Assembly (NCBI GenBank): GCA_002722615.1
Contig: PBMQ01000020.1
Span: 26,738-61,353 of the forward strand
Direction of reading: 5' to 3'
Source of the DNA: Methanobacteriota archaeon
GTDB lineage: Archaea > Thermoplasmatota > Poseidoniia > Poseidoniales > Poseidoniaceae
Length of the DNA: 34,616 nucleotides
Below, piece after piece: positions 4,301 through 31,500 of this stretch. The notes under the pieces are model-generated. The model made no database searches, was not told the DNA's origin, and worked only from the letters and a program-made list of their open reading frames with translations. Each line of letters begins with the position of its first letter. Positions within the stretch are counted from its first letter, which is position 1. A program made the translations under genes and the position numbers.

Positions 4301-6731
4301 CTATGATGTCCTTCACCATATTGAAGCCAGCCTTGAAGCCCTCTATTTCTTGCTGAGAAGCCTCTTTGCTGTCTTGCATCGCAACCTTAGCCGCGATCTT
4401 TGCGCTTTCTAAGCGTTCCTCTTGATCCATCTTCTCCAGATCAATCATGGTTTTGGCTTCAGCTTTTTGTGCATCGACTTGGACTTTTGCCATGTCGGTT
4501 TGCGCCCTAGCCATAGCCTGCTGTTCCTTGAGCGCCAACTCTCGCTGTTGCATCTGAATAACAGGATCTTGCGACTGTTTGGCGTTTTGTTCTGCCTGCT
4601 CCATCATCTTGGCCTTGCCCGTAAGCTGTTCAGCCGCAGGCACTGCCAGTCTGGATATACGCAGTTCAATATCTTCGGGTAGCTTTTCGTCTGGACCGGG
4701 AAGCTCCATTCCCAATTCTTTCTCAATCTTAGACCTGTATAGAAACGCTACATGTTCTGCAATGTGCGCGGCAAAAGCGGCCTCTATGGCCTTTTTGTTG
4801 GGCGCCCGGGCGACCATCTTCATGATCTCTGGGTTTTGCATCGCCGCCATGTGGACTTGGATGTGGGCTTCGTGATCCTGATATATAAACGCCTTGACCG
4901 GCTCTCCGGTGATGATGTTCATATTTTCTGTAATAGGATCAGTTGGCTTAATGTCGTCCTCTGTTGGAACGATTTTGTCTGCGTCCTGAATGCCCAAGAC
5001 ATCTAACATCTGACGGTGAAGCAGTGGCAAGTCATACATCTGGGGTGCCTGAGCCGCCAACTGCAACGCCGCCTGATACTGCATGATCCTTTGAGCCATT
5101 GTGCCTGCGTTAGGATCGCTGACCGGAATAATGTCTACCCGATCATCAAAGTCCATCGGCAGTGCCTGCCCATCCTCATCTTCGTAGGGATAAACCTCTG
5201 GACCGTAGTCCCTGACAAGCTCTGCCAATATCTTTAGTTCTTTGGAGACTGCCGCGTGAACACGAGCCTGTACCGCGCTCATCACCTTCATCTCTCGCTC
5301 TAGAACTGCAAGCGTGGTGCCAACCGGCGCTTCGCCATTGATGTCTGAGGCTTTTACATCCGCCGCTGACGCAAATCGACGCCCCTCCTGAACAATGTCG
5401 CCCAGCAACTGGTAAAGGACGTTGCTCGGCTCCTTGTAAGGCAGGAACGTGATGTTGTCGCGGATTGCACCACCCGGAACGTCTACGTCTCGGAACTCTC
5501 CGGGCATGATGGGAGTGTCATCGCCCTTAATTCTGAGTCCCCGAGATTTCAATCCCCCCGGTAGGTTGGCAAGTGTTCCGGCGTCTACCAGCTGTCTCAG
5601 CAACGATGTTGCCGACTTGGATAGACCACCGATCATATGTACTAGGCCGAAGCCATAAAAGCCCAGACCGGGCAAATACTGGTAGTGAACATAGTGATCC
5701 CGCTTCATCTTCTTGGGGTCACTTTCATACCAGTTTCGTCGAATCGACAGGATTGTTCTTGATGACTTGTCAATGGTAACGACATAAGGCAAAGCAATGC
5801 CCGTGGTCTTGCCTCCGTCCTTGTCCTCAAACCCAATAAGGTCGATATCGACGTGCATCTCAAGCAGGGTATGGCGGTTGTCAAACTCGTAATTGTCCGA
5901 GTCTCCAGTCAGCCGATCATACTTCTGCTGTATCTCTGAAATATCCGGTGATGGAGCAGGCAAGTCTATGTCAGAATAAAACCCGCTTACCTGTAACTTC
6001 CTGATTTCATTGGAAGTTTTCTTCATTACATGCGTAGCACGCTCGCAGGTAGTCAGGTCTGATGCACCATAACTAACAACAAAATCCTCTGCTGGCACAA
6101 ACATGGCACAAGGTCTGCCCATGCTTGGGTCAAAGTACACCTTGCGGAATGCAGAGCCTGCAATCGACAGAGAAAACAACAGCTTCTCTGTCTCCGTTCG
6201 GTATTCCGTCATACGCTGGGTAATCAGGTAGTTGAGGTAGTTCTCAACTCTGTGCGCCTGCTTGGTCTTTTCGTCGTCTATCTTGCCGACGATAGTGGTC
6301 TTTACAGGCCCACTGGCAGGATATATCTCCTGTATCGTTTGTGCTTGAAAGCGGATAACCGCCTCGGACAGCATAGGGTGAAATACCCCGCAGGCTCCTT
6401 CCCACGGCGTAGACCTGTCCTCAAACTTTAGTCCTAACAAGTCAAGACCACGGACATAGGAGTCTTCCCAGTCTGCACGGCTCATCCGGTCAGCATCAAA
6501 CTGGGATACTAGCTCACTAGCAAGACTGTCTAGGTCTCGCTCATCCATGTACTCAGCAAGGTTAGAGCCATGCTCAACGCCCATGAGGGCAGGCATATTG
6601 GGATCAAAATCAATAATCATCCCGCCATCTTCGTCCATCAAGCTGACAGACTCGGGATTCTCGATAACGATCTCTAGCTCTTCTGCGGCCCCAGAAGGGG
6701 CGAAGGGCGTTGCTACGCGGTCAACAGCCAC
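4278..6731 (-). CDS. Portal protein (P22-like, long C-terminal coiled coil)
   Basis: 817 aa, GTG start; SRADWE, PWEGACGVFHP, GSAFRKVY, PGLGFYGFG, PGEFRDVD motifs; Gln/Ala-rich helical tail. Confidence 0.88.
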   Translation of the reverse strand: MAVDRVATPFAPSGAAEELEIVIENPESVSLMDEDGGMIIDFDPNMPALMGVEHGSNLAEYMDERDLDSLASELVSQFDADRMSRADWEDSYVRGLDLLGLKFEDRSTPWEGACGVFHPMLSEAVIRFQAQTIQEIYPASGPVKTTIVGKIDDEKTKQAHRVENYLNYLITQRMTEYRTETEKLLFSLSIAGSAFRKVYFDPSMGRPCAMFVPAEDFVVSYGASDLTTCERATHVMKKTSNEIRKLQVSGFYSDIDLPAPSPDISEIQQKYDRLTGDSDNYEFDNRHTLLEMHVDIDLIGFEDKDGGKTTGIALPYVVTIDKSSRTILSIRRNWYESDPKKMKRDHYVHYQYLPGLGFYGFGLVHMIGGLSKSATSLLRQLVDAGTLANLPGGLKSRGLRIKGDDTPIMPGEFRDVDVPGGAIRDNITFLPYKEPSNVLYQLLGDIVQEGRRFASAADVKASDINGEAPVGTTLAVLEREMKVMSAVQARVHAAVSKELKILAELVRDYGPEVYPYEDEDGQALPMDFDDRVDIIPVSDPNAGTMAQRIMQYQAALQLAAQAPQMYDLPLLHRQMLDVLGIQDADKIVPTEDDIKPTDPITENMNIITGEPVKAFIYQDHEAHIQVHMAAMQNPEIMKMVARAPNKKAIEAAFAAHIAEHVAFLYRSKIEKELGMELPGPDEKLPEDIELRISRLAVPAAEQLTGKAKMMEQAEQNAKQSQDPVIQMQQRELALKEQQAMARAQTDMAKVQVDAQKAEAKTMIDLEKMDQEERLESAKIAAKVAMQDSKEASQQEIEGFKAGFNMVKDIIDDEESKQ

Positions 6732-7013
6732 TTAGCCTTTTCCGCCTCTCTTACCGCCCTTGGTGCTCATCTTGCTCATCACCTTGCCGCCTTTAAAGTA
6801 GCCCTTCGCCATCATCTTGTTGGCTACCTTTGTTTTTCCGCCGCCTGCCATCTTCCCTTGGCCGTCTGCGGCAAAATGCGGCACCTCTTGGCCCTTGTCG
6901 TTCGTGACCATTTTCATCTTGCCGCCTGCCTTCATACCCTTGGGCACCATCTTGCCGCCTGCCTTCATGCCCTTGGGCATCTTGCCGCCTCTACGATTCA
7001 TCTTGTTCTTCAT
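6732..7013 (-). CDS. Small, very basic Lys/Gly/Met repeat protein
   Basis: ATG 7013 with GAGG RBS; repeated (K)GMKAGGKM units; stop abuts the portal GTG. Confidence 0.65.
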   Translation of the reverse strand: MKNKMNRRGGKMPKGMKAGGKMVPKGMKAGGKMKMVTNDKGQEVPHFAADGQGKMAGGGKTKVANKMMAKGYFKGGKVMSKMSTKGGKRGGKG

Positions 7014-7689
7014 CGTCCTCACCTGCGTATAAGTTGTCGAATACTCTGTTTACGTCCAGCGTGTAGTCCAAATCCGACTTGGAGTAGTGGATGTGCTGTG
7101 ACGGCCTAAAATCTGGTGCGCCCTCTCCCGTTGACCACCATGCTGGGTGTGTCACCCGTACACGGTTGTTGGGTAGCGCCACAATATTGCCCGTCCACGG
7201 GCCTGCATCCAGAAGCTCCATCACATGGCTCTGCTTGTGTTGAGCAGGGTCATCAGCGATTTCGTTGTCTGTGTAGTCCACCGTGAACATGTACTTAGCA
7301 GGGTAGAACTCCCCGTCTATCTTGGCGATCCAAGGACACGGCGTTGCCCTTTCAAGGACATAAACGCTGTGCTCCCTAGATGAGCAGTCCCACGGCTGAG
7401 CCGCGTAGACCGGCATTGGCTCGGGCCACTCCACAAACGGGGTGTCTCCGACCAAAGCAGTGATAGGCATCCTTGCCCACATCGCGCCTCCGTGGACATT
7501 GGGATCGTCGTTGTCATAGGTTTCAGCGCCGGTAAATATCATCTGAAAGCTGAGACACCGACAAGGCATCGTTGTAACTGCAACCGCCATAGCATGTAGA
7601 AACTCGCCATGGTATTTGTCGTGGTTGTGTGTGTATTCGCGTCTTACCCAGCACTTAAAGTGCGGAATATTGCTTTGTAGGAATGCCAT
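6991..7689 (-). CDS. Conserved hypothetical phage protein
   Basis: 232 aa rich in His/Trp/Cys (GAMWARMPI, QPWDC, QHKQSHV, GNIVALPNNR); overlaps both neighbours. Confidence 0.7.
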   Translation of the reverse strand: MAFLQSNIPHFKCWVRREYTHNHDKYHGEFLHAMAVAVTTMPCRCLSFQMIFTGAETYDNDDPNVHGGAMWARMPITALVGDTPFVEWPEPMPVYAAQPWDCSSREHSVYVLERATPCPWIAKIDGEFYPAKYMFTVDYTDNEIADDPAQHKQSHVMELLDAGPWTGNIVALPNNRVRVTHPAWWSTGEGAPDFRPSQHIHYSKSDLDYTLDVNRVFDNLYAGEDDEEQDES

Positions 7690-8431: not shown

Positions 8432-9914
8432 GCGGGTCGAAGTCATCTTCCTCGTCAGACCTGAGCGCCACAAAGCCGCCCTGCCTGAAGCGAAGAAGTG
8501 CTTGCGTTGAAGAGTCAACAAGGTCGTCGTGCTCCCCCGCAGGGAACGCGGCAAACTCCTCCATGACCTCTTCAGCGAATCTTGTCTCCGGAGCCCACAC
8601 GGTCCCAGAGGCGAACAAGTCAGCAACGGCATTAACCCTTGCTATCTTGTCGTTACCACGCGAGGGGGTGTATTCCGAAACCGGAATCCCCATCGCCCGT
8701 AGCTCAAATATAAGCGGCATCCCTGCCGCCTTTCCTTCCACGATAAATGCATCTGGTTGCATTTCGCTCCACATCTCGTAAGCCGTTTTTTTTAGCTCTG
8801 GGAACTCCAGACGTTCTTTGTAGGCATCCAGTAGGATGACATTCGGCTGTGATACGCCGTCATCGTCGGGGTGATAAAAGACACCCCAAGTTGTGCAGGC
8901 AGAGTAGTCCGCCCGTTGAGTTTTTAAGAAAGCTGTGTCCCATGACTGAATCACGAACTCACATTGCGGAGGATAGTCTTTCTCCCAGACCTTCCACCAT
9001 TCTCTCTTGATAAGTGCGCCCTCTTCGGACGTTGGGTTTTGCTGATACTGCGCGTTCCACTTGGGGGAGGGCAGTTCACTCCGCAGAGCCTCAAGCTCCG
9101 TTTGGCTCCAGAACTCAGGCCACAGGGGTTTCCCTGACGGCATGATGGCTGGAAATTCTATAACCTCCCACTCATCGGAGCCTACCCGTTGAGCAGAAGA
9201 CTTAATAATCTTGCCGGTCAGATCACGCATATGCCAGCGTGTCATTACAATGACGATAGCGCCTCCCGGCTGAAGACGCTGTCGAGGCCCAGATGTGTAC
9301 CAGTCATACGTCCGGTCAAACACCGCTGGGTCTGCTGACTGGCCCTCTTGCTCTGAATGAGGGTCGTCAATAATCAAAAGGTCTGCACCTTTACCTGTTA
9401 CCGCACCGCCAACACCGATAGCGAAGTATTCGCCGTTCTTGTTGGTGCTCCAGCGGCCTGCCGCCTTGGAGTCTGCTCTTAGCTGTAGATTGGGAAAGAC
9501 TTTCTTAAAGTCATCCGAGTCCACAAGGTTTCGGACCTTTCGGCCAAAACCCACAGACAATTCCGCGGTGTGCGCCGTCTGGATAATCTTTTTCTCAGGC
9601 ATCTGGCCTAAGAACCATGCTGGTAACAAGTAAGAGGCAAACTCAGACTTGGTGTGCCGTGGTGGCATATTTACGATAAGGCGCTTCAGTTCGCCTCTGG
9701 CAATGCGCTCAAACGCCTCGGCCATGATCTTGTGGTGTCTGCCCTCAATAAATGCAGGCCACATGTGCTTCACAAAACCCATATAGGTGTTCTGTGCCGC
9801 CTCAACTTCTTTTGCAGTCTTGGCCTTTTCTAGTATTTCTGCGGCTCTTAACCGTACCTCTTCAGGTGCGTCCTGTAGCTTCTTGGCTAGATCGGGCGTA
9901 ATTAAGCCTGACAT
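8406..9914 (-). CDS. terL: Terminase large subunit
   Basis: Walker A NMPPRHTKS, Walker B LLIIDDP, coupling motif VMTRWH, nuclease SWDTA and HDDLVDS. Confidence 0.95.
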   Translation of the reverse strand: MSGLITPDLAKKLQDAPEEVRLRAAEILEKAKTAKEVEAAQNTYMGFVKHMWPAFIEGRHHKIMAEAFERIARGELKRLIVNMPPRHTKSEFASYLLPAWFLGQMPEKKIIQTAHTAELSVGFGRKVRNLVDSDDFKKVFPNLQLRADSKAAGRWSTNKNGEYFAIGVGGAVTGKGADLLIIDDPHSEQEGQSADPAVFDRTYDWYTSGPRQRLQPGGAIVIVMTRWHMRDLTGKIIKSSAQRVGSDEWEVIEFPAIMPSGKPLWPEFWSQTELEALRSELPSPKWNAQYQQNPTSEEGALIKREWWKVWEKDYPPQCEFVIQSWDTAFLKTQRADYSACTTWGVFYHPDDDGVSQPNVILLDAYKERLEFPELKKTAYEMWSEMQPDAFIVEGKAAGMPLIFELRAMGIPVSEYTPSRGNDKIARVNAVADLFASGTVWAPETRFAEEVMEEFAAFPAGEHDDLVDSSTQALLRFRQGGFVALRSDEEDDFDPHGRVANYY

Positions 9915-10165
9915 TACGCCATCCGTGCTGTTTTCGTGCGTTTAAACGACCTGTTCTTTGATCTGTTCGCCACCTTCAAGTTGCCCTTCTTGTTAGAGCC
10001 GCCTTTTGCCAGTGGTTTTTTGTGAGCAACATCCTTTCCGTCGCCCTTGGAAACCTTGCCTTCCTTCTCCATCAAGCGCCTAGCGGCCTTCCGCTTATCG
10101 TTGTTTCGGCGCTGTTTTGGCTTGGATTGGTAGTTTTCGTATTCCTTGCGGTAGTTTCGCCTCAT
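9914..10165 (-). CDS. HNH-endonuclease-like small basic protein
   Basis: GDGKDVAHKKPLAKGGSN...NL...NRS HNH-like pattern; TAATG coupling to terL. Confidence 0.7.
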   Translation of the reverse strand: MRRNYRKEYENYQSKPKQRRNNDKRKAARRLMEKEGKVSKGDGKDVAHKKPLAKGGSNKKGNLKVANRSKNRSFKRTKTARMA

Positions 10166-12387: not shown

Positions 12388-12416
12388 AATATAACCCCTT
12401 GACAGTAACATGTCTA
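12388..12416 (-). promoter_or_regulatory. Sigma70-like promoter pointing into the late operon
   Basis: Minus strand TAGACA (12416-12411), 17-nt spacer, TATATT (12393-12388). Confidence 0.55.
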
Positions 12417-12643: not shown

Positions 12644-13138
12644 TCAATGGATGTCCACAGTATCTGGCCGATCCCGGGAAAACTCGAGATCGTCTACGTC
12701 TGACGTGTCATCAGCAGTGGCTGAGTCGAGCATCGCATCGAGTTCGGCGAGCAGGTCAGCCGATGACCGCACGTCGACCTCAGCTGTCAGTTCGACAAAG
12801 GCGCCGGATGCGCGGCCCAGTAGCTCCAGAGCGCGGAGCCTGCCGCTATCCTGAGGGCTGGCAGTGAGCGCGAGGTCTCGCAGATGCTTCCTGACCATCT
12901 CACGGTCAGAGAGTGCAGAAGCAACCATACCGGCCTCTCTAGCGCGTATCAGCTGGTCATACCTTGACTTTACCTTGCGTGACCCAGCGAGCCTACTCGC
13001 TCTCTCATGCACGCTCTTGGCCTTGGCCTCCGGCCCCACGTCGAACGCTTCCCGATAGGCGTCAGACTGAGACATACCGCTAGCCCACGCCCGACAGAAG
13101 TGAAGCTGTTTGCTTGTGAGTTCCTTGTCGTCTGCCAT
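12644..13138 (-). CDS. terS: Terminase small subunit
   Basis: LTSKQLHFC...SQSDAYREAF...ASRL HTH-type N-terminus and RLRALELLGR C-terminal motif; AGGAG RBS. Confidence 0.8.
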   Translation of the reverse strand: MADDKELTSKQLHFCRAWASGMSQSDAYREAFDVGPEAKAKSVHERASRLAGSRKVKSRYDQLIRAREAGMVASALSDREMVRKHLRDLALTASPQDSGRLRALELLGRASGAFVELTAEVDVRSSADLLAELDAMLDSATADDTSDVDDLEFSRDRPDTVDIH

Positions 13139-14973: not shown

Positions 14974-14979
14974 ATCACA

Positions 14980-16122: not shown

Positions 16123-16124
16123 GC

Positions 16125-20274: not shown

Positions 20275-20435
20275 ATGCATATGACGCATTTGTCTTAGCG
20301 TCTGTTCTTTCGATTGGGGCACCGACAAATCAGCAAGCCAGACAGGCGGCACAGATAGCCAAAAGCATTGCTTTAGAGTTGAGTCCACTGCAAATTCAAA
20401 AGGGCAGAGAGGAGGCTATGAGTGTCATCGGATGA
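20271..20435 (+). CDS. Small hypothetical protein (54 aa)
   Basis: Hand-translated MNAYDAFVLASVLSIGAPTNQQARQAAQIAKSIA...; ATGA coupling; fills the gap between neighbours. Confidence 0.55.
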   Translation: MNAYDAFVLASVLSIGAPTNQQARQAAQIAKSIALELSPLQIQKGREEAMSVIG

Positions 20436-20604
20436 CGCACAGATAGCTGTGGAAGAGGCTATGTTACAGGCTGAAATTCTGGGCGAGGATGTGGCAATCA
20501 TGTCCGACCTCAGCGTTCAGCGGCTACGAAATACCACGGGCGCCGTGCTGGAGATAGTGCGGTGCCCCGCCCCTTTGAAAAGGCAAGATGGTGCCGTAGA
20601 CTGA
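20422..20604 (+). CDS. Small hypothetical protein
   Basis: 60 aa, GTG start with GGAGG RBS. Confidence 0.55.
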   Translation: MSSDDAQIAVEEAMLQAEILGEDVAIMSDLSVQRLRNTTGAVLEIVRCPAPLKRQDGAVD

Positions 20605-20686: not shown

Positions 20687-21166
20687 TCAACCGCCGCTCT
20701 TTAAATGCCTTACCGGATTCTTACCACCGGACATACGCCGCTCAGCAATCCAGCCCAGCCCCTTTTTTAGGGTGAGAAGCCTTTCTTTTGATGCAGAAAT
20801 GTCCCACCCATGGACCACCACCTCCTCGACAAGATACCTAGCATAGTCGCCATATCGCCTACCGACTAGTCTTAAAGTCTTTCCGTACCGCATCAAGGCG
20901 TCAGACGCCATCGAGTCTGGATTTGCATCTCCTGACCCCGCCTCGTACCTGAGGGGCTTGGAAAAGATGCCGGCCTTCACCGCCTGACTCAGAATATACT
21001 CTCCAGCTTGGTGCTCACCCAAGGTCAGTAAACCGTCCATGAGATATCTGTCAATCACATTCTGATCCATGACTTTGGCGCGAGGCATCGTGCCGCCCTC
21101 CACCATGACGGCGTGGCGCTTGTGTATCTCTTTTGTGCCTAAGTCTGTGTGTAACTTGTCAGTCAT
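20687..21166 (-). CDS. DUF6456-like protein, possible transcriptional regulator
   Basis: IDRYLMDGLLTLGEHQAGE motif and helical C-terminus; downstream of the helicase. Function is inferred. Confidence 0.5.
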   Translation of the reverse strand: MTDKLHTDLGTKEIHKRHAVMVEGGTMPRAKVMDQNVIDRYLMDGLLTLGEHQAGEYILSQAVKAGIFSKPLRYEAGSGDANPDSMASDALMRYGKTLRLVGRRYGDYARYLVEEVVVHGWDISASKERLLTLKKGLGWIAERRMSGGKNPVRHLKSGG

Positions 21167-21235
21167 ACGAAATGTCCCCGGACCCGGAAATTGTCCCCGG
21201 ATAATAAAAACTCTGCTGAGAACTTGTTAACAGTA

Positions 21236-22984
21236 CTAGAACTCATCGAAGTCATCCCATGCCCTGCCCCGCAATTTAGACAGGCTCGTGGTCGGCGGAT
21301 CTGGATCGGGTGTCCTCTCGGTGTATGTACCGTTAAACATGTTATAGCTAAGATGTGCTACGCCCTGAGATCCCACCCACTTGAATCTTGATTTCCAACA
21401 GTGTATCTCGACGCATTCATCTGTTCTGTGAACTGTCACACCTAGATCAGCCTTGGCAAACCATGCGGCAGAGCCTGAAATATTCATGCCCTTGGGGACT
21501 GCGTAGGTGCCATCCTCACGGGGGTACATCTTCTGGGGGTGCGCGACAAACCAGACGTGAATGCCATGCGCTTTGGCAAAGCTGGTGATTCGGGTCAGCA
21601 TCTGAGAAATGTTGCTGTGTTCTTCCTGACTGCTAGATTCTATGTAGTTGTACGGGTCGATGATGAGACCCCGCACGCCCATACGCATGACCGCCTGCTT
21701 GGCCCTATCGATAATTGAGTCAATCGTGCTGAGGCCACCGTCCTTGCTTTCAAGGAAGACAAAGTGATCGTTTATAAACTCGACAGCCTCACCTAGCTCA
21801 TCCTCTGTCATTCTCTCGCTAAGTCCGGTGTAAAACGGCTTGCCTGATACCTTTTCAGCCAGCTTGGCGATGTGCATATGTGGCGGGTTTTCAAACGAAC
21901 AGACCGCAAACTTCCACGATTCACGTTTAGCAAGGTTGATCATAATCTGATCGATAAACTCAGACTTTCCTGAGCTTGGCATCCCCGTCACAACAGACAA
22001 CTGGCCCTCAGCAACGGTAAATAACTCGTCAATCGAGTCAAATCCCGTCGAGGCGCCCCGCCCGTGACCGTTCTGGTAGATGTCCTTGACTGCATCCATG
22101 TACTCGCTGACACCATACACACCAGACAAGGGTATCGGCTCAGGGTTGTCGAAGATCCTGCGGGTTTCTTCGGCTCCTAACTTGTCAACAGCATCGTTTG
22201 CATCTTTGGCGCCCTTGGGGAATTTGACCCTCCAGCACTTTGCTCTGCCCACTCGGCGCGCAATCTCCTCTGCCAGCGCCTCGCCAGCCTCATCGCTATC
22301 TGTCGCCAGAACAATCTTCTTGCACCGATCTAATCGCTCGCGTTCATTCCACACAAACGCAAACTTTTTATCCTCCTCAGGATCTACCCTGTTGTGCGAT
22401 ACCTTTATCGGCGCCCCATTTGGGCAGGAAACGGCCTTGATTCCGATGCTGGCTAGAGCAATGACATCACACTCCCCCTCAACTATCGTTAACTCTTCAG
22501 CCTCTTCCTCTATGTTTTCGATGCCGTAAAAGGATCTTGGTGCGCCATCGCAGGTAAACCCCTTGCCCTCTACAGATCGCCACTTAATTGCCGTTGGCGA
22601 CTCCCGTGTGCCGTACACAAAACCAACCGCCTGCTTCTCCTCGCCCCCAAACCACTTGGTGCCGGTGGTCATCAGGGGTAGGTCATTGATGTCGTTGATT
22701 TTTACCCCTCGGGAGGAAAAGAAGTTCTTAACAAGTTCTACATTATCGTTTAGCTGTGTGGGTATCTTTACTACTTTACTTTGTGTCATATGAGCCTCGT
22801 AAAATTTTTCACGCCTGTAAGACCCAGACAAACCGCAATGGTGGCAGTGGTAAAGGGTATGGTCTGGCTTAACGGTGATTGAAAGTGTCTTTATAGTTTT
22901 CTTTTTGCGTGCATCTGAGCAGTCTGGGCAACGCTCTCTGGCATCTTGATTATGACTCAGGATGAAGTCTTTCAAGCTGTCCAT
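21236..22984 (-). CDS. Bifunctional primase-helicase (T7 gp4/Twinkle-like)
   Basis: Zn finger CPDC...CHHC; TOPRIM IVEGECD, ATDSDEAG, KDAND; SF4 helicase GMPSSGKS, IIDPYN, FVAHP, ISGS. Confidence 0.92.
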   Translation of the reverse strand: MDSLKDFILSHNQDARERCPDCSDARKKKTIKTLSITVKPDHTLYHCHHCGLSGSYRREKFYEAHMTQSKVVKIPTQLNDNVELVKNFFSSRGVKINDINDLPLMTTGTKWFGGEEKQAVGFVYGTRESPTAIKWRSVEGKGFTCDGAPRSFYGIENIEEEAEELTIVEGECDVIALASIGIKAVSCPNGAPIKVSHNRVDPEEDKKFAFVWNERERLDRCKKIVLATDSDEAGEALAEEIARRVGRAKCWRVKFPKGAKDANDAVDKLGAEETRRIFDNPEPIPLSGVYGVSEYMDAVKDIYQNGHGRGASTGFDSIDELFTVAEGQLSVVTGMPSSGKSEFIDQIMINLAKRESWKFAVCSFENPPHMHIAKLAEKVSGKPFYTGLSERMTEDELGEAVEFINDHFVFLESKDGGLSTIDSIIDRAKQAVMRMGVRGLIIDPYNYIESSSQEEHSNISQMLTRITSFAKAHGIHVWFVAHPQKMYPREDGTYAVPKGMNISGSAAWFAKADLGVTVHRTDECVEIHCWKSRFKWVGSQGVAHLSYNMFNGTYTERTPDPDPPTTSLSKLRGRAWDDFDEF

Positions 22985-23111: not shown

Positions 23112-23134
23112 AGCCCCCGCTAGGGGGCTTTTTT
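23112..23134 (+). terminator. Rho-independent terminator, U-tract on the plus strand
   Basis: AGCCCCC-GCTA-GGGGGCT followed by a T run. Confidence 0.65.
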
Positions 23135-23384
23135 ATGCGCACTGAAACAACTCTTCCATCACCATTTCAGCAACAACCCTCTGTTGCGTCCGGCTCAAGC
23201 AGAGCATTTCGTCTAGTGCGTCTTGCAGGCCAACGGGGTAACCCGCCAGCCGGCAGTGATAAGAAAAAGCGTTAGATTTCAGATAGTTAATGGCGGCATC
23301 ACGGTCAACTTGCTGGTTACAAACCAAGTCTTTGATGGCCTGAAGGATGACCTTGCTATACACAATTTTATAGGTGTCTGACAA
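23133..23384 (-). CDS. Conserved hypothetical phage protein
   Basis: 83 aa, VILQAIKDL...F..HCRLAG pattern. Confidence 0.6.
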   Translation of the reverse strand: MSDTYKIVYSKVILQAIKDLVCNQQVDRDAAINYLKSNAFSYHCRLAGYPVGLQDALDEMLCLSRTQQRVVAEMVMEELFQCA

Positions 23385-23775: not shown

Positions 23776-24033
23776 ATGAGCAAAATGGGACGTTATGTCT
23801 TTGATCTACAGATGGCTGAGGAGGCCGAGTTTTATGGACATCCAGATAGAAAAGCACGTACCAATCCCCAAGCGGACAAAGATACCGGACCTGCCGCTGG
23901 CAGAGATGGAGATCGGCGACTCTTTTGTGGCACCCATCAACGCGAGCGAGCAGACGGAGGTCAGAGCACTCCGACAGCGGATCTCCCGATGGCAACGGGA
24001 CCGACTCCCTGTGAGATTCTCCGTCGTTCGTGA
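23776..24033 (+). CDS. Hypothetical ORF overlapping the next gene
   Basis: Strong GAGGAG RBS and plausible N-terminus MSKMGRYVFDLQ; last 200 nt overlap 23834..24067 in another frame. Confidence 0.4.
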   Translation: MSKMGRYVFDLQMAEEAEFYGHPDRKARTNPQADKDTGPAAGRDGDRRLFCGTHQRERADGGQSTPTADLPMATGPTPCEILRRS

Positions 24034-24067
24034 CGGCGAGCAGATGAGAGTCTTCCGAATCGCGTGA
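23834..24067 (+). CDS. Small putative DNA-binding protein
   Basis: IQIEKHVPIP...LPLAEMEIGDSF...MRVFRI family pattern; start set to ATG 23834. Confidence 0.7.
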   Translation: MDIQIEKHVPIPKRTKIPDLPLAEMEIGDSFVAPINASEQTEVRALRQRISRWQRDRLPVRFSVVRDGEQMRVFRIA

Positions 24068-25154: not shown

Positions 25155-25863
25155 GCCGACTTACGCAAGCGTCTGGAAAACGCTGAGTCAGATAGACTGC
25201 TCTGACAAAGCAGAAAATAAGAACGGACTGACCTACCTTTCGTGGGCGTGGGCGTGGGGCATCCTGATGGAGCATTACCCAGAAGCCACATATCAGTTCC
25301 TCAATGAGGAGTGGGATAGTGAGGGCCATGCCACTGTTTGGTGTAGCGTCAAGATAGGCGAGCTAGACCGCCTTATGTGGCTTCCCGTGATGGATTACAA
25401 GAACAAGGCTATCGTGAAGCCCGACACCAGAGCGGTCTCTGATACTCGTATGCGGTGTCTAACTAAGTGTCTGGCGATGTACGGGCTGGGCCACTATATC
25501 TATGCTGGCGAAGACCTTCCTGCCAGCAGTGACGCCGTGGAGGAGAAGCCTGCCCCTAAGGAAAAGCCCAAGCCGAAAGCAAAGGCCAAGCCCAAGGCAG
25601 AGCCAAAAACGGAGACGCAAGCAGAGCCTCTGCCTGACCACATTGGAGATGAAGAAGAAGCGGAGGGGGTTCTTGGTTTTCTGTGCGGTACTGCTGACAA
25701 GTTTGCAGGAAAAACAGAGGGCGAGCTAATCGAATGGTGGCAATACCCTGAAACCAAGAAAGCGGCAGACCTGCTTGATCAGGGATACCCAGAACATTAC
25801 AAGCAACTCATGGCGCATTTGTCTGCGCTACGAGCATCATTAAAGGAGAGTAACGATGAGTAA
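25126..25863 (+). CDS. Sak-like (DUF1071, Rad52-related) single-strand annealing protein
   Basis: LTYLSWAWAW, LPVMDYKNK, MRCLTKCLAMYGLGHYIYAGEDLP. Confidence 0.88.
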   Translation: MTTKKAGSTEPTYASVWKTLSQIDCSDKAENKNGLTYLSWAWAWGILMEHYPEATYQFLNEEWDSEGHATVWCSVKIGELDRLMWLPVMDYKNKAIVKPDTRAVSDTRMRCLTKCLAMYGLGHYIYAGEDLPASSDAVEEKPAPKEKPKPKAKAKPKAEPKTETQAEPLPDHIGDEEEAEGVLGFLCGTADKFAGKTEGELIEWWQYPETKKAADLLDQGYPEHYKQLMAHLSALRASLKESNDE

Positions 25864-26490: not shown

Positions 26491-26915
26491 TGGAGATACA
26501 TCTACCCCAAAACAGGGCAATCCAGAGAATGCGAGTGCTACAGTCTCTGTGTCAGGAGTTTCCGCAGGCGGCGCCACAAATAGTGGAGGTCAACCTTCAG
26601 TCGAGACATGGAGTTACTCTGGAGGTAAAGCCTCTGCGAACTCACCGATCAAGACCCCAAGAAAATTACTACAGAAAGTGGTGCAATGGTTTCGCAAAGT
26701 TCTGCGGATTGACCCCTGACGAAATGCACGAAGAGATTCTCTGCCAATGTTATGGCTCAGAGGAGATAGAAACGCGGTTTGGAGTAAAAAGAAGGCCGAT
26801 CAAACGAAGTGGCGATACCACCCGTGGCGACTACTCCGAGCTTATTGAAACGCTATGCAGGGTGGCGGCACAGATGGGATATGACGTGCCGCCCCCAGTG
26901 CAGGAGGAAGAATGA
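26490..26915 (+). CDS. NinB/YbcN-like recombination protein
   Basis: RSRPQENYY..W, EMHE, RS......YSELIE pattern. Confidence 0.6.
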   Translation: MEIHLPQNRAIQRMRVLQSLCQEFPQAAPQIVEVNLQSRHGVTLEVKPLRTHRSRPQENYYRKWCNGFAKFCGLTPDEMHEEILCQCYGSEEIETRFGVKRRPIKRSGDTTRGDYSELIETLCRVAAQMGYDVPPPVQEEE

Positions 26916-27130
26916 CAAAGCTGACGCTTGAGTTAGAGGGCGAGGCCTACGCAGACGGGCTTGCTACTGCTGACAAGTTTCTGGCACTGATAACCGAGAG
27001 ACTCGACCGAATTGACAAGGTCACGGAAAACATCCTAGACATGACTAATATAAATGCCGATGCACTGGATGACATACGTGCCGCAATAAAGGATTTGGAG
27101 GAGGCAAAAGCCGCCTTGTCCGGTGACTGA
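26912..27130 (+). CDS. Small coiled-coil hypothetical protein
   Basis: 72 aa, AGGAGG RBS, ATGA coupling. Confidence 0.6.
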   Translation: MTKLTLELEGEAYADGLATADKFLALITERLDRIDKVTENILDMTNINADALDDIRAAIKDLEEAKAALSGD

Positions 27131-27575
27131 GATCAGGCTAACACTGGCAGAGATGCAGATCGCCGCCAATGTCGGAGTCCAGAGGCAGTTACAGAACCTC
27201 AAGAACGATGCCACACCTGCATACGGCGCTGGATCGTCTAACGACTGGCAACTGCATGTCGAGGGCGCACTTGGTGAGATGGCTCTGGCAAAGCACCTAG
27301 GTATTTATTGGGATGGGAAAGGCCAAATGAGGGCGCCGGATGTCGGTAACGTGGATGTGCGGACATCTAACAGGAACTCTGCTCGCTTGATCATCCACAA
27401 CTCAGATCCAGATGACAGGTTTTTTTTCCTGCTGATCGGAGGCAATGGAAGATATCGATGTGCTGGGGGGGTGTACGGCAGGGATGGTAAGCGAGATGAA
27501 TTTTGGACTGACCCAGCCGGAGGTCGCCCGGCGTACTTTGTTCCTCAAAACAAGTTAGGAGTAATAAATGGATGA
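27123..27575 (+). CDS. Hypothetical protein, possible restriction-endonuclease-like fold
   Basis: GALGEMALAK, PDVG.VDVR, YFVPQ; GTG start. Confidence 0.6.
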   Translation: MTEIRLTLAEMQIAANVGVQRQLQNLKNDATPAYGAGSSNDWQLHVEGALGEMALAKHLGIYWDGKGQMRAPDVGNVDVRTSNRNSARLIIHNSDPDDRFFFLLIGGNGRYRCAGGVYGRDGKRDEFWTDPAGGRPAYFVPQNKLGVING

Positions 27576-27657: not shown

Positions 27658-27693
27658 TACACTGAGTGTCCGTTTAACAAGTAGGAGTATGTA

Positions 27694-28056
27694 ATGTCAA
27701 AGTATTTCACAGCTATCATCGCCTTTTTCTTTTCTTCTTTGGCGGCGTCTCAAACCATAATTTACTACGAGGATGGCTCTGTTTACACCGTTAAGGAGAA
27801 CGAAAAGGTGTACGTCGAAACCTCTAGCAAGTTGTACACAAAACAAGGCTACAAAAATGGGAATGAGTATTTCATTCACAAGGTGCCTAACCAAAAAGTA
27901 GATTATGAAGAACAGCCTTACGATGGCGAAGATCTTGGCTCACCAGAGTGGTGTGAGGCTTACGCGCCATATCTTTATGTCAATGGATTTACCTTTGACG
28001 ATCAAGCCTATATCCGGTATTGCAACCAAGATGGCTCAGGTGATGGCGACGGTTAA
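27694..28056 (+). CDS. Exported protein with signal peptide
   Basis: MSKYFTAIIAFFFSSLAASQ signal-like N-terminus, Tyr-rich, two Cys; AGGAG RBS; AT-richer than neighbours. Confidence 0.65.
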   Translation: MSKYFTAIIAFFFSSLAASQTIIYYEDGSVYTVKENEKVYVETSSKLYTKQGYKNGNEYFIHKVPNQKVDYEEQPYDGEDLGSPEWCEAYAPYLYVNGFTFDDQAYIRYCNQDGSGDGDG

Positions 28057-28502: not shown

Positions 28503-31500
28503 TTACAACCCCCTTATCACGGACCTGTTAGCAAGACTTTCAAGTAGCGGGGTGACGCTCAGGATGTTGTTCTCGTACTCCCTTAGCGCGTCAAGCTGTT
28601 CCTTCTTCATCTCCGCATCTAGGTCAGAACGCATGATTGCGCGCCTCATTACCCTGATGTCATCAAGATCTTTCTTGATTGAGTAAACACCGTCCTTAAC
28701 CTCAGACAGGTTTCCTATCTTGGGTATCAAGGCGTCAAGCTCATCATGCCTGCCGTCTCTGATTAGGGCATTCATGCTATTGTAGTCCTGACGTATTTCG
28801 CTATAGAGGTCGTAGAACTGCTCTTTGAGGCCGCTCCCCTCCGGTGAGGTTAGGAAACGCTTGACCACAGGGTAGTCGTAAGTTGCAAGCGCGGACATCT
28901 CCGGCTGTTTGACGTTATAACCGATGGCGTCCAGACCTTCGCTGACTGTTGGGTCTCTGACTATTCTATCGATCCAGCTTGTAACAAAGACGCCAGTGCC
29001 TCCAGTATATCCCCTGATGATGTGGTCTATCTTCATGGGAGATATACCGCCACCGCCAAACGGGATAGTTGCTTTTTGAAGGAGCAACGAAAGCTCAGTG
29101 GTGGCATCTGTTCTCTGCATCTCTGGACGTTGACCCGTCATCCAAATAGGCACAATCGTCCTGCCCGTGTACACGTCATAATTAGTTATGGCTTCCAGCA
29201 CAGGCGTAAGCGCCTGAGGCACAGGGTTGAAGTTGAGCGTAGAAAGAATCGCCTGCTTGCCGCTCTCAAACGCCTGCTTCCCTGTCCTCTTATCTGATGT
29301 CGTGTCCAACACAACCTCAGGAATAGTCTTGAATATCAAGCCAACCTCAAATGGAATGGGTATGGCTATCGCTCCAACATCTTTAAGCCAAGGGACGGGG
29401 AACAGCCAGTTGTTGTCCCTTAGCTCCCTGCTTGCTTCCCTGTACTCGTCCTCGTCGCTGACCTGCGCCCAATACAGCGCAGTTGCAAAGCCCAGCAACG
29501 CACCTCGCATCGCAAAACCTATTATGGCCCTGTTCTGGGTTAGCTCTCTGTTCGCTGGGTTAACCCCAATTGCGCCACGATACAGAACATCTAAGCCCTG
29601 TATTCTTGCGTTGAGGAATGGCACGGCTGTCGCAATAGCCCTCATAACACCATTACTGCCGCGTCTGGAGAAGTTAAGTATCTCCATCGCCTGATAGTGC
29701 GCCTCAGCCTCGTTGCCCGTCCGAGAATACACATCGTTATAAACGGCCTGTCGGGTTGCCGCGTCCGATCTAGTTGTCTGGCGCCCGGCGAAACGCCACA
29801 TTGTCCTGATCATGTTAAGAGGAAGTCCCCGCCTTTTTCTGTTGGCTGACTCTTCCTCAAACAGCTTGCCGAGATCCTTTTGATCTATGTTGAAATCGTA
29901 GCCGCCAACAACGCCGGTTCTTTCCAGCCTGTTTACGTCAGCAAAGTATCCCTTGGTCGTATCTATCCACGGTAGGAACCTAGCGCCAGATGTAACAAAG
30001 GCGGACAAGCTATCCCTTAACAAGTTAGCAATCATAAATCCCGGGGTACGAGTGACCGTTTCCCTCAGCAACGAGGAGAATGGCCCGAAGTACATTCTGG
30101 ACAGGTTCTCCAGACCAGAACTTTCTATTGCACTCATCGACTCAAGGATAAGCGGGTCATGTATTTGGAAGTAGACGGGCTCTCCGCGAACCTTGAATCC
30201 GATAACAGCCGCATCATCCTTTCTGGAAGCAGGCACTTGGGTCGCAAGCTGTAGCTTCTGCATATCTCTCGCAATGCGTTGCTGGGCGACATTACGCATA
30301 CCGAGATCAATGGCAGACCCGACATTCTTGGTAATCGCCTCAATCAAAGGCACGTTGATCTTGTCTGTTTTGCCCTTGTACGCCTTAAATGCGCCCAGCT
30401 TTCGCAGATCGCCATACGCATTGGTAACGACCTTTCCGATCTCTGCTTTAGGGTCTAGGGCTCTGTAGTAGGGGATGTAGTCTGCGGCTAGACGCCAGTC
30501 TTCTGCTGTCTTCTCGTTGAGTACGCCCGTGTCCTGAAGGAATGTAATGACTTGGTTGTTGTATGCTTGCCAAGCACCGTACCATTCCTTAACGGGGTTG
30601 TTTCCGTTGGCGTCCGTGAACTGCTCTACATCCCTAAGCGCCTGCTGATAGTCCGCATCTGTGACAGGGGTGACCTTGCCGTCATCGTTTAGCCTTTTGC
30701 CCCGCATGGCAATCGCGTAAGCCTGAGCAAACTGTGTAAGGTCTCCGTATTGCTTTGTCCTTAACAAGTCAATGATATCGATCAGACCCCGGTACTGTTT
30801 GCCGTTGTGGGAGAAATCCACAACCTTCGTCAGTCCGTCTTTGTATTGGGGAACGCCGCTCTTAAACGCTTCAGCGGTGACACCCGCAGATCTATCAGCA
30901 AAAAGCACAGCCGCAATGGAACTGCTGTCCGCTAGATAGTCGTTAAAATACTTCTGGTTCAGCTTCTCCAGTCTGGCGTATCGGTTGAGGATCGCTTGGC
31001 GTGCTTTTGTAAACTTGTAGCTGAGAGGGCTGTTGTCCCCAGTCGCATCCATGTACTGTTGCATGGGGTCTACGCGATCTGGCCGGTCAGTTACAAGCCT
31101 GCCAATAAATGATTTGGTTTCTGGGCGGTATTCTGGGTCGCGTGATTCCAGTATCTCATCAGGGACAATCGCCGCCTCTGGGTTGCGCGCAATGTACTGC
31201 GCTTCTGGTGAGGCCTTGACGCTGTAGAGGGGCACGGTGGTGCCGGCTCTTTCCGCTTCTTGTTGGTTTTGTGCGACAACTTTTTCTATTTTAACCGGAT
31301 CTATGCTTCTGGCAGATGACCTGCTGTACATGATGTCGTCTTCGTAGCGCCTGCCTTCTGGCACAGACTCAGGGTCAAAGCGAGCGAACATCCCCTTGAT
31401 GTCCTCGCTGTTGAACATGGCAACAGCACTGTAGGGATCGCCCGGTCTTTCGATGTCGTAATAACCGACAAACCCAGCCTCTTTCATGTATGGCGCCAAG

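Follow-up and report, generated by a model that had tools for sequence, protein, structure and literature searches.

What is the role of the short palindrome TRAC-(AA/TT)-GTYA that recurs through this stretch of DNA? The whole stretch analysed, 34,616 nucleotides and called the window here, is the right part of C20, a 61-kb phage contig binned into a 1.84-Mb MAG. The original prediction reported ten exact copies of a 10-bp palindrome and proposed that they are sites for a dimeric protein. All ten copies are confirmed, with cores starting at 5763, 6435, 15525, 17569, 18085, 19450, 21152, 22178, 30018, and 30762. TRACWWGTYA is expected 0.29 ± 0.54 times in dinucleotide-preserving shuffles of the window, and none of 100 shuffles reaches 10. 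The perfect form TAACWWGTTA occurs four times against 0.10 expected, as the earlier estimate of well under one chance copy implied. The near copies also stand as described, with one mismatch each at 9624, 21220, and 22729 and two deviations each at 27675 and 12406. The sites in the window are given below, where the outer letters are the T and A of the longer site described further on, and a strand is named only where one is assigned.

5757..5778: portal gene "site B", core TGACTTGTCA at 5763-5772, outer T and outer A both present
6429..6450: "site A", also in the portal gene, core TAACAAGTCA at 6435-6444, outer T and outer A both present
9618..9639: near copy inside the gene for the large terminase, core TAACAAGTAA (at 9624), one mismatch, both outer letters
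12406..12415: variant TAACATGTCT, two deviations, overlapping the -35 TAGACA of a minus-strand promoter-like site
12695..12716: near copy where the small terminase gene ends (3'), plus-strand core TGACGTGTCA, one central mismatch, both outer letters
15519..15540: site within the gene 14980..16122 (ATPase), core TAACTTGTTA, one of the outer letters present
17563..17584: site between genes, core TAACAAGTTA, with a terminator-like hairpin (17548-17562) on one side and the RBS of 17598..17822 on the other
18079..18100: site in 17819..18190, core TAACTTGTTA, conserved in the relative L110
18629..18650: near copy, one mismatch, both outer letters
19444..19465: site in 18764..19756, core TGACAAGTTA, both outer letters
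21146..21167: site over codons 2-5 of the p159 gene, core TAACTTGTCA at 21152-21161, both outer letters
21201..21235, minus strand: p159 promoter-like site, -35 TTAACA (21230..21225), 18-nt spacer, -10 TATTAT (21206..21201)
21220-21229: near copy supplying the p159 -35, GAACTTGTTA, one mismatch, both outer letters
22172..22193: site in the primase/helicase gene, core TAACTTGTCA
22729..22738: near copy in the primase gene, TAACAAGTTC, one mismatch, neither outer letter
25689..25710: near copy, TGACAAGTTT, one mismatch, both outer letters
26965..26986: near copy, TGACAAGTTT, one mismatch, both outer letters
27542..27563: near copy with GGAG directly after it, AAACAAGTTA, one mismatch, both outer letters
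27675..27684: weak copy, TAACAAGTAG, two mismatches, directly beside the RBS of 27694..28056
30012..30033: site in the gene for the giant polyvalent protein, core TAACAAGTTA, outer T and outer A both absent
30756..30777: second site in the gene for the giant polyvalent protein, core TAACAAGTCA, outer T and outer A both present

Such an excess could arise simply from composition, codon usage, or common descent. Relatives have inherited many of their copies, so that these do not count as independent, and the frame in which the motif is read, xxT-RAC-WWG-TYA, is forced by stop codons. However, dinucleotide shuffles, synonymous-codon shuffles, and Markov models all predict less than one copy. The synonymous-codon shuffle, in which codons are permuted within each gene so that protein sequence and codon usage are preserved and dicodons are not, is close to the codon-based check that had been proposed. 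It leaves 0.50 ± 0.67 copies in the C20 coding sequence (maximum 4, and 0 of 300 shuffles reach the observed 11), with 4 observed against 0.29 for the relative G001 and 9 against 0.79 for the relative G002. The proposed k-mer check gives the same picture, as ACTTGTTA and ACAAGTTA are the top words of an unbiased ranking once GCC-repeat words are excluded. ATCGACAA is enriched in G001 as well, and it was rejected as a motif because its palindromic partner is absent; it is read as a codon-level Ile-Asp-Lys effect. Copies with one mismatch on C20 fill 28 rows against 13.8 ± 3.6 in simulations, and both outer letters are present at 11 of 27 such places, compared with an expectation of about 1.5, which brings the C20 total to about 23 sites with near copies. 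After de-duplication across relatives, 72 independent site positions remain, flanking positions that were not selected for are conserved, and synonymous entropy is lowest at the motif codons. The artefact explanation is rejected on the shuffles, the de-duplicated positions, and the entropy, and has practically no probability left. The motif on C20 is a confirmed observation, far above chance and above a codon-preserving null.

Selection at synonymous positions is seen in the portal gene. The exact core of site B is present in 37 of 48 unique portal sequences, and its codons rank 1/36, 7/48, 1/31, and 2/27 from the lowest synonymous entropy, a constraint that the original prediction had named as a test. 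Site A is kept in 20 of 48 sequences and is under weaker constraint (ranks 11/54, 20/48, 3/54, and 14/54). The primase core is found in 10 of 22 aligned primase genes, and a D-to-N substitution in the primase leaves the motif intact. The divergent lineage L134 (59% primase identity, 41% G+C) has six sites in 8.2 kb, and its primase gene has a site of its own, three codons (9 nt) upstream of that of the clade and encoding other amino acids. Judged from these alignments, the L134 lineage evolved its own primase site.

The full site is longer than the 10 bp first described. The core is palindromic as claimed, but the symmetry extends over 22 bp as T-N5-TRAC-AA-GTYA-N5-A, and the outer letters, six bases past either core end, are strongly conserved. 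Among the 72 de-duplicated sites the outer T (offset -6) is present in 54 against a background of 0.24 (binomial p = 1e-19), and the outer A (offset +15) in 48 against 0.23 (p = 7e-15). The outer letters lie about one helical turn from the dyad and would therefore be on the same helix face as the core. Read by hand, the AA strand of the 12 C20 sites is sense to transcription in 5 and antisense in 7, which amounts to no orientation bias. By DNA strand, the AA-centred reading falls on the plus strand 7 times and on the minus strand 5 times in C20, and 5 and 5 times in the window. At the start of the homologue of 4100..4300, relatives have either TAACTTGTTA (encoding N-L-L) or TGACAAGTTA (encoding D-K-L) at the same place, so that the centre swaps between AA and TT at one position. 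As far as comparison of sequences can tell, the motif functions at the DNA level and not at the level of RNA or protein. A stable hairpin is unlikely, since the arms beyond the 4-bp stems are non-complementary in the logo. An AT-rich unwinding region beside the sites was considered and rejected, as the G+C content stays level at 0.46-0.54 over the ±150 nt around a site, apart from the site itself and the adjoining bins.

The location of the sites relative to genes bears on a further reading, that the motif belongs to promoters or to leader sequences at gene starts and is read in one direction. Copies at 17569, 27548, 27675, and 18085 (the last in minus-strand reading) lie directly before GGAG and a start codon, the 0..+30 zone of starts holds about twice the chance share (10.3% against 4.4%), and TRACA is similar to the -35 hexamer TTGACA. 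Of 165 unique-context sites, 38 are between -60 and +30 relative to a start, a zone that holds 13.8% of random positions, and 21 are in its upstream part, -60..-1, which holds 9.4%. However, the other 127 are beyond this zone for every start, the AA strand has no preferred orientation (sense in 5 cases, antisense in 7), the symmetry spans 22 bp, and the centre flips at one place among relatives, so this reading is very improbable. About three quarters of the sites are away from gene starts, which is unusual for a plain operator network. The start-associated sequences of Cluster K mycobacteriophages, by comparison, occur only just upstream of start codons; the C20 copies share with them a subset that abuts the RBS of small early genes, and differ in their wide spread elsewhere.

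Two copies overlap promoter-like sites. The -35 TTAACA of the p159 promoter-like site, with 10 of 12 consensus matches, lies within the copy at 21220, and TATTAT follows the half-site by 17-18 nt in the window, L109, and L112 (by eye). The promoter-like site that the variant at 12406 overlaps, at its -35 TAGACA, is directed towards the late genes and also has 10 of 12 consensus matches. The overlap with a late-promoter -35 that had been suggested for 12406 is real, but the match is no better than chance. For neither of the two promoter-like sites does the number of hits exceed that in shuffles (4 against 2.7 ± 1.8 for that of p159, 1 against 1.3 for that at 12406). Three sites had been placed next to an RBS; this is correct for 17569 and 27675, whereas 21220 lies 54 nt upstream of the start codon, inside the promoter-like site.

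Serine-recombinase crossover sites typically have a non-palindromic central AA or TT between inverted arms, and the C20 sites could by this likeness be crossovers of a site-specific recombinase, or short linkers for module exchange. An AA/TT centre is preferred over AT at 63 places against 9, and avoidance of ACATGT is not the cause. The copies at 17569, 21220, and 27548/27675 are found at the edges of blocks in which relatives differ, and the phage encodes Sak, exonuclease, RusA, and NinB-like proteins. Against this, PHROGs and Pfam searches of the whole contig found no serine or tyrosine recombinase, resolvase, invertase, or integrase, at least 12 sites in both orientations would scramble the genome, and the best-conserved sites are in the middle of conserved genes. 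Recombination sites are thus a highly unlikely explanation.

In relatives, which had been proposed as a check, the motif is enriched, with 120 copies in 717 kb where the control has 5, and a second set gives 101 against 1 over 376 kb. Where primase identity is 69% or more, there are 2.7-3.0 copies per 10 kb, compared with 0.23 per 10 kb at identities of 44-53%. Among cultured phages, the nearest four have 0-1 copy apiece, and G047, G048, and G049 have none. G001 is of a type that lost the early-region sites. L299 and L319 fall in the L125 lineage and in the lineage of C20 itself. On these comparisons the motif is limited to one clade. A megablast search of 12 kb against the phage collection gave no match. 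The stretch or part of it is present in 20 of 24 listed public sequencing runs, in all cases as assembled contigs, and no RNA run containing it is listed above a share of 0.05.

Enrichment in candidate host chromosomes, which had also been proposed as a check, was not found in the MAG or its genus. AA/TT-centred copies number 12 on C20 and 4 in the remaining 1.78 Mb of the MAG, where 9-17 are expected, and 24 genomes of the same genus have 0-9 copies each with no C20-like cluster. A host regulator should have host sites, and these counts argue against binding of the sites by a host protein, for instance a global regulator or a nucleoid protein, which the phage would recruit or titrate, with sites gained or lost according to the host infected. 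The host-site test is itself weak, because the G+C of C20 (0.521) is unlike that of the MAG (0.445-0.488) and C20 may have been binned wrongly. A host protein would fit the patchy spread of the motif off the phylogeny, as L134 (59%) has the 22-bp motif and G047 and G048 (60%) lack it, and no phage gene tracks the motif perfectly. G001, unlike C20, avoids ACATGT (4 against 22-28 expected) and ACTAGT (0 against 13), which hints at a different host. On the other hand, L134 and C20 are 11 points of G+C apart and have the motif in common, so that a shared host is not indicated. Overall, a host protein is unlikely, though it has more in its favour than the promoter or recombination readings.

A phage enzyme that nicks or cuts at specific sites, as in T5, phiKMV-like phages, and tf, is another candidate. 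As reported in PMC3517423, the nick sites of these phages number about 4-14, have a 9-19-nt consensus, are dispersed in genes at similar positions across related phages, and are all on one strand. The C20 copies, likewise dispersed, mainly intragenic, and conserved in position, resemble the nick sites of the LUZ24 group as described in that paper. A small, very basic ORF beside the large terminase gene, 9914..10165, occurs only in motif-bearing genomes and looks HNH-like by eye (D-x2-H...GG-x-N...N-L), but sequence searches of Pfam and PDB do not support the HNH call. Moreover, the nick sites described there are asymmetric and one-stranded, whereas the C20 sites are two-fold symmetric with no strand bias (7 on plus, 5 on minus), and a palindrome nicked on both strands would break the genome. 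Nick sites are accordingly improbable.

Enrichment, synonymous constraint, and 22-bp two-fold symmetry together form the pattern of sites for a dimeric DNA-binding protein, and the sites are probably bound by a protein of some kind. The preferred reading is that they are binding sites of a phage-encoded regulatory protein, with a probability of roughly 0.55. In this respect the original proposal of a dimeric protein fits the pattern. The analysis demonstrates the motif, with its enrichment, symmetry, DNA-level constraint, clade limits, and link to p159; protein binding, the dimeric state, repression, and the identity of the binder are inferred from these.

Several known systems resemble this arrangement in part. 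The stoperators of Cluster A mycobacteriophages are asymmetric 13-14-mers in twenty to thirty-odd copies genome-wide, also away from promoters and oriented with transcription, and are bound by the immunity repressor of a temperate phage. C20 similarly has one short motif in many copies, on and off promoters, and one putative phage binder, but its site is a 22-bp palindrome, mostly intragenic, and without orientation bias. PHROGs and Pfam scans of the whole-contig ORFs found no integrase or repressor family, and small ORFs with no family match remain. In phage P1, more than a dozen scattered C1 operators place many transcription units under a single regulator, and Streptomyces phage phiC31 has conserved inverted repeats that are palindromic and scattered; in both temperate phages the sites are mainly at promoters. 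C20 shares the dozen or more dispersed copies of one site, palindromic as in phiC31, and differs in that its sites are mostly deep in coding sequence and the phage looks lytic. The sopC-like centromere repeats of the plasmid-prophage N15 are dispersed palindromes, some of them in or beside genes, and a single dimeric protein binds them and silences promoters in their vicinity. The C20 palindromes are scattered, some in or beside genes, in a manner similar to the N15 repeats and to parS/ParB, but there is no sign of a plasmid lifestyle, and PHROGs, Pfam, and NCBIfam searches found no ParA, ParB, or Sop protein on the contig. The matS site is a 13-bp palindrome, GTGAC-N3-GTCAC, of the enterobacterial chromosomal Ter region, bound by the host protein MatP. 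C20 has the same inverted half-sites, TGAC/GTCA, in dispersed copies, whereas its spacer is 2 bp and not 3 bp, and neither the MAG nor the genus shows enrichment of the motif. The stoperator, parS, and matS analogies of the original prediction therefore do not hold as memberships, given the symmetry of the site, the lack of ParA/ParB, and the spacer length.

Three small proteins had been proposed as binders, and one of them has gained support.

20687..21166, minus strand: p159, 159 aa, adjoining the primase/helicase gene on its downstream side throughout the family, probably regulated through the motif and the leading candidate binder

Sites bracket the p159 start: of 23 related loci whose p159 is of the H.WD type (residues 119-122), 21 have a site between -150 and +30, and these loci have 2.95 other sites per 10 kb. 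Loci with other residues at 119-122 have a start site in 0 of 10 cases and 0.14 sites per 10 kb. The correlation is built on related sequences and may reflect one evolutionary event. All three contigs of the L134 lineage stop 70-154 nt past the primase gene, short of p159. In G001 and G046, p159 lacks H.WD and the early region has no sites, but 4 and 6 sites are present in other parts (0.29 expected for G001), so either p159 is not the sole binder or the H.WD residues are not decisive. Homologues of p159 are also present in the motif-less G047 and G048. In the C-terminal half of p159 (residues ~79-148), 8 of the 10 top VIA-align structure rows are entries that contain sigma factors (Z 4.9-6.1), and such entries make up most of the upper rows (Z 4.5-6.1). 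The match to sigma region 4 is weak, as no row reaches 8, the mark of the tool for helical proteins. Foldseek against PDB gave no match for p159 at E ≤ 0.001, and BFVD at the same threshold only uncharacterised phage proteins. A profile search of PDB sequences returned nothing, Pfam contained no Sigma70_r2 or Sigma70_r4 match at E up to 10 and only MDMPI_N at E = 0.15, and NCBIfam gave nothing relevant. The predicted homodimer scored 0.01 (mark 0.42), which has no weight either way. On the co-occurrence of sites and residues, p159 is a tentative candidate for the binder.

The other candidates are weaker. For 23834..24067 no support was found. The protein of 19915..20274 has a Myb/sigma-r4-like HTH and a C-terminal membrane helix, with matches to Myb_DNA-binding (E = 0.025, 15.2 bits, below the cut-off of 24.4), Sigma70_r4_2 (E = 0.021), and phrog_323 "transcriptional regulator" (E = 1.8e-7). 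It was rejected as the binder, as the family matches are weak and the predicted recognition helix varies, by eye, among lineages with the same motif. A comparison of gene presence and absence with motif density found no gene in all motif-bearing loci and missing from all others. C20, G001, G002, and G046 have six genes that occur nowhere else in the comparison (6991..7689, 9914..10165, 18275..18544, 20422..20604, 23133..23384, and 26912..27130); the split follows phylogeny, and a relative of 23133..23384 occurs also in the motif-less G047 and G048. The pair of ATPase and DUF2201 genes (14980..17546) is present in 11 of 14 motif-rich loci and in 0 of 9 motif-poor ones. It was rejected since it has no DNA-binding domain and is missing from the site-bearing G001 and G046; the "ATPase" 14980..16122 matches phrog_1297 only.

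Under the preferred reading, one sequence-specific DNA-binding protein, probably encoded by the phage, would occupy operator-like sites as a two-fold symmetric dimer. The TRACA half-site may double as a -35 hexamer in two places, upstream of p159 and upstream of the late operon, and occupancy there would block RNA polymerase. A second site over p159 codons 2-5 would add to the block of p159, and the conserved sites deep within genes may be extra anchoring or road-block sites for the same protein. A more speculative and rather unlikely extension is that p159 is a new sigma-region-4-like phage factor that binds TRACA as a dimer, shuts its own promoter and the late promoter, and organises the genome. 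Such a factor would displace host sigma at the -35 hexamer, and the outer T/A would be touched by a second contact of each monomer. The approximately twenty intragenic palindromes could then mark or organise the lytic phage genome, for example by coupling replication to the transcription switch.

Networks in which one binding site recurs across the genome have been described for a few temperate phages, with roles in immunity or partition. A full-text literature search for six exact 10-mers gave no match, among those listed, that concerns such a phage motif; TTGACAAGTTA appears in one literature match as a -35 region in Klebsiella phages. The main text of a paper on uncultivated HTVC023P-type genomes contains none of the terms "palindrom", "promoter", "binding site", or "inverted repeat".

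The C20 sites form a network of about 20 sites in abundant, uncultured, apparently lytic marine podophages. They offer a clean and testable case of a second code laid over phage coding sequence, as most sites are inside essential genes with their synonymous positions held by selection. Synonymous sites in motif-bearing genes are not neutral, which matters for annotation and for evolutionary analysis. Sister lineages with and without early-region sites provide a clear contrast, and one 22-bp probe with a few candidate proteins gives a handle on gene regulation in phages that have not yet been grown.

The motif is a TRACWWGTYA core with an AA or TT centre. All ten exact copies that the original prediction had placed in the window are found at their positions, versus 0.29 by shuffling, and the perfect TAAC form occurs four times (0.10 in shuffles). 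The whole phage contig, C20 (61,353 bp; the window is its bases 26,738–61,353), contains 12 copies with an AA/TT centre and one with an AT centre. The MAG without C20 (1.78 Mb) contains four of each, where Markov models of order 1–5 predict 9–17 AA/TT-centred copies. In an unbiased word count with GCC repeats set aside, the top C20 words are ACTTGTTA (12 versus 1.55) and ACAAGTTA (11 versus 1.55). The codon-preserving control proposed with the motif, run as a synonymous-codon permutation per gene that retains proteins and codon usage and not dicodons, leaves the C20 enrichment standing. Its coding sequence has 11 copies versus 0.50 ± 0.67 (maximum 4; none of 300 shuffles at 11), and coding copies in two relatives under the same permutation number 4 versus 0.29 (G001) and 9 versus 0.79 (G002). 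Further over-represented words in C20 are ACGTTTCCCG and ACGGGAAACG, with four copies each. G002 has a tandem array of GGAAACGGAAACGG and five copies of AAGCTAATTGAAG, and the k-mer lists of C20 and G001 are dominated by GCC/GGC repeat words.

C20 has a G+C content of 0.521 versus 0.445–0.488 in the remaining 37 contigs of the 1.84-Mb, 38-contig MAG. Its gene content is as follows.

Window, structural and packaging genes: major head protein, portal, large and small terminase
Window, replication and recombination genes: T7-gp4-like primase/helicase, RusA, exonuclease, Sak-like annealing protein, NinB-like protein, YbcO/DUF968-like nuclease
Window, further gene: protein of at least 1988 aa with an LPD38 domain
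12372–12404: spot within the divergent region between late and early genes, with loose contig ends on both sides in one DNA run, which may be a variant junction or genome end
14005–17546: 317-aa unknown, ATPase (phrog_1297), and DUF2201 metallopeptidase-like/VWA-like protein, a trio present in C20 and G002 and absent from G001 and the relative G046, with a Kyanoviridae Gp96-like gene just upstream
C20 left arm: genes for ejection, lysis, and tail; no integrase or recombinase found there

The nearest cultured phages are the Pelagibacter phages HTVC027P and HTVC023P, phage 023Pt_psg01, and phage DSL-LC04, with large terminase identities of 53–60%. Only structural genes are common to C20 and these four, and nothing from window position 12494 on has a match in them. 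The tailed-phage gene set and the cultured-phage matches indicate that C20 is a phage genome binned with the MAG. It is near-complete. Since its G+C deviates from the other contigs and no related prophage was found among 24 genomes of the MAG's genus, the MAG is doubtful as its host.

The site is longer than the core. C20, two near-complete relatives, and 156 related loci supplied 262 sites with complete flanks; merging at a flank identity of at least 60% reduced these to 72 independent sites, all oriented with an AA centre. In 54 of the 72, the base six positions before the core is T (background 0.24; p = 1e-19), and in 48 the base six positions after it is A (background 0.23; p = 7e-15). Between the core and these outer letters are weaker mirror-symmetric preferences, namely R, Y, and Y at −5 to −3 and Y at −1. 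The full site is thus palindromic over 22 bp, T-N5-TRAC-AA-GTYA-N5-A; the 10-bp palindrome of the original prediction is real as a core and too short as the full extent. Cores with one mismatch are also in excess (28 rows versus 13.8 ± 3.6 in 60 simulations, maximum 24), and both outer letters are present at 11 of 27 such places, where about 1.5 are expected. Another copy, C20:25332–25341 (TGACNTGTCA), about 1.4 kb left of the window, has an assembly N at its centre and both outer letters, and G001 has an exact copy at the equivalent place. The total for C20 is about 23 sites, including 12 exact cores, with one more N-masked. In a nine-genome set (232 kb), the centre is AA/TT at 63 places, AT at 9, and TA at 1. 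Avoidance of ACATGT is ruled out as the cause of this centre, as ACATGT occurs at the expected rate in C20, G002, and G046. G001 strongly avoids ACATGT (4 versus 22–28 expected) and ACTAGT (0 versus 13), and the other three genomes avoid ACTAGT only, mildly; the G001 pattern suggests a host with different restriction systems.

The AA strand at the 12 C20 sites is the plus strand at 7 and the minus strand at 5, and, read by hand, is sense at 5 and antisense at 7. Such mixed strands fit neither an RNA signal nor promoter behaviour. For most copies a directional promoter or leader element is excluded, and such elements are very improbable as a general explanation. Localized nick sites of phages are dispersed and conserved in a comparable manner, and targets of a phage nicking enzyme are a slightly less improbable reading; against it, known nick sites are strictly one-stranded (PMC3517423). 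The AA/TT centre is suggestive of recombination sites, a reading as improbable as directional elements, with no recombinase found on the contig.

Near the start of the homologues of the small gene 4100–4300, the same place reads TAACTTGTTA (Asn-Leu-Leu) in some relatives and TGACAAGTTA (Asp-Lys-Leu) in others, and in the primase gene the motif survives an Asp-to-Asn change. The portal alignment comprises 48 unique sequences, the window plus 47 of the 50 homologues found in 80 terminase loci. Portal site B (core at 5763) is exact in 37 of the 48. Ranked from the least variable within their amino-acid class, its Ile codon is first of 36 columns, its Asp codon seventh of 48, its Lys codon first of 31, and its Ser codon second of 27; the following Ser codon is 16th of 27. 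Site A (core at 6435) is exact in 20 of the 48 and is less constrained than site B. Two other portal positions carry the motif in four and three sequences, one through an Ile-to-Leu change. Three near-complete genomes have few site positions in common and the rest are lineage-specific, which means that individual sites come and go and the count remains high. The related locus L134, with a primase identity of only 59% and a G+C content of 41%, has six sites in 8.2 kb with identical outer letters. Its primase gene carries its own site three codons from the clade's site, in codons for different amino acids. This locus is the strongest single item for action on DNA and for selection. The three L134-lineage contigs (L134, L241, L242), from different data sets, all end 70–154 nt past the primase gene, at or after the post-primase palindrome, where assemblies seem to break. 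As judged from sequence comparison, the motif acts on DNA and is under selection.

Of 165 unique-context sites, 38 lie within −60 to +30 of a called start, versus 13.8% of random positions, and the zone from 0 to +30 holds 10.3% of sites versus 4.4%. The majority of sites thus lie well within genes, and starts are modestly over-represented. Copies and elements near starts are listed below.

20687–21166, minus strand: p159, a 159-aa gene adjoining the primase/helicase gene
21220: copy whose left half is the predicted p159 −35
21167–21210: conserved element TTATTATCCGGGGACAA between this upstream site and the p159 start, also in L109–L113, L127, L129, and L171; it includes the predicted −10 TATTAT, then a short CCGGGG-rich inverted repeat, terminator-like by scan (21190–21175)
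17569: intergenic copy between a terminator-like hairpin and an RBS
27548 and 27675: intergenic copies abutting an RBS
14950–14979, 17579–17597, and 18250–18274: near-identical leader (T)CCTGTAGGAGGGAT, then 4–7 nt and ATG, at three early genes; a second recurrent element, independent of the palindrome

The p159 gene is 3′ of the primase gene throughout the family. Motif-rich lineages have a short spacer after the primase stop, with one site at the beginning of the spacer and a second over p159 codons 2–5 (Met-Thr/Ser-Asp/Asn-Lys-Leu/Ser). Where a lineage has no early-region sites, the start of p159 and the primase stop overlap and no site occurs there. A consensus scan of the p159 strand finds one promoter-like site with 10 of 12 matches (−35 TTAACA, 18 nt, −10 TATTAT). 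By eye, TATTAT lies 17–18 nt past the half-site in the window, L109, and L112. At 12406, where a variant of the motif had been predicted to overlap a late −35, the overlap is found with the −35 TAGACA of a promoter-like site facing the late genes. Both matches are placements, not proofs, because neither scan exceeds its shuffles. TRACA beside a pyrimidine resembles TTGACA, and protein binding at that point would keep sigma off.

Among relatives, 80 terminase loci (717 kb) contain 120 copies versus 5 of a reversed control pattern. Primase loci with at least 69% identity (29 loci, 376 kb) contain 101 versus 1, four at 59–60% contain six, all in L134, and 41 at 44–53% contain 12 in 512 kb. Whole records have 9–10 (G002), 6 (G046), 4 (G001), and 1 (G050), with none in G047, G048, and G049, and the four nearest cultured phages have 0–1 each. 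Within the clade, 15–22 kb of early region are site-free in L114–L117 (the G001 type), L126 (G046), and L132, and G001 and G046 retain structural-gene sites. The primase site of this group is erased by codon changes, GAC AAG TTA to GAG AAG CTN. The 24 genomes of the MAG's genus have 0–9 copies each and no single-contig cluster. Binding by a host protein would explain the patchy distribution and is the least improbable of the alternatives; it is still unlikely, as the only candidate host is without host sites.

For a phage-encoded binder, p159 is the best lead. Its residues 111–124 are readable in 33 of 76 primase loci. The Y-L/I-V/I-E-E-V-x-x-H-x-W-D type (H.WD at residues 119–122) occurs in 23 loci and seven variants, with a site near the p159 start in 21 of the 23 and 2.95 further sites per 10 kb. 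Other residues occur in 10 loci and seven variants, with a start site in none and 0.14 further sites per 10 kb. As the 33 loci are related to one another, one evolutionary event may underlie this correlation. The AlphaFold model of p159 is all-helical (mean pLDDT 71, above 90 at residues 90–140), and a Foldseek search of the PDB gives no match at E ≤ 0.001. An exhaustive structure aligner has sigma-factor entries (region 4) in eight of its best ten rows, with Z of 4.9–6.1, below the telling level for helical proteins. BFVD gives four matches at E ≤ 0.001, all uncharacterised phage proteins, followed by a DUF6456 protein (E = 1.7e-3) and weak rows labelled ECF sigma factor, DUF1492, and sigma-70 region 4. 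Speaking against p159 as the sole binder are G001 and G046, which have 4 and 6 sites without the signature, and the presence of homologues in the motif-free G047 and G048. Six genes are restricted to motif-bearing complete genomes, a split that follows phylogeny. Two genes besides p159 are as follows.

19915–20274: family of small phage proteins with an N-terminal Myb/sigma-r4-like helix-turn-helix, a conserved IADDNRIW motif, then a C-terminal membrane helix
9914–10165, minus strand: very basic 83-aa ORF directly upstream of the large terminase gene, one of the six restricted genes

Family matches of the 19915–20274 protein are all sub-threshold, and its presumed recognition helix varies among lineages with a common motif. 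It would be a tail-anchored DNA-binding protein that could tether DNA to the membrane. The 83-aa ORF has, by eye, an HNH-like D-V-A-H-K-K-P-L-x2-G-G-S-N...N-L-K-V pattern without the usual cysteines, and this reading has no match in Pfam or PDB sequence searches.

No description of the motif occurs in the papers listed by an exact-word literature search or in the main text of the paper on uncultivated HTVC023P-type phages. Temperate phages have dispersed operator networks such as stoperators, P1 C1 operators, phiC31 inverted repeats, and N15 centromere repeats. These are the closest in logic to the C20 network, but it misses the defining features of each, where tested. Distinctive of C20 are a 22-bp palindrome, whose AA/TT centre is asymmetric, and a host genome belonging to a marine podophage that is apparently lytic; most copies are within essential genes, with measurable synonymous constraint and turnover between lineages. 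In the favoured mechanism, a dimeric protein would read the 10-bp core and make contact with the outer T and A, each a helical turn away from the dyad. It would repress at p159, and perhaps at the late operon, where a half-site also serves as the −35 hexamer, and the second site just inside p159 would reinforce this repression. The same protein would occupy the conserved intragenic sites, which may serve as road-blocks to read-through, anchor replicating DNA, or mark phage DNA.
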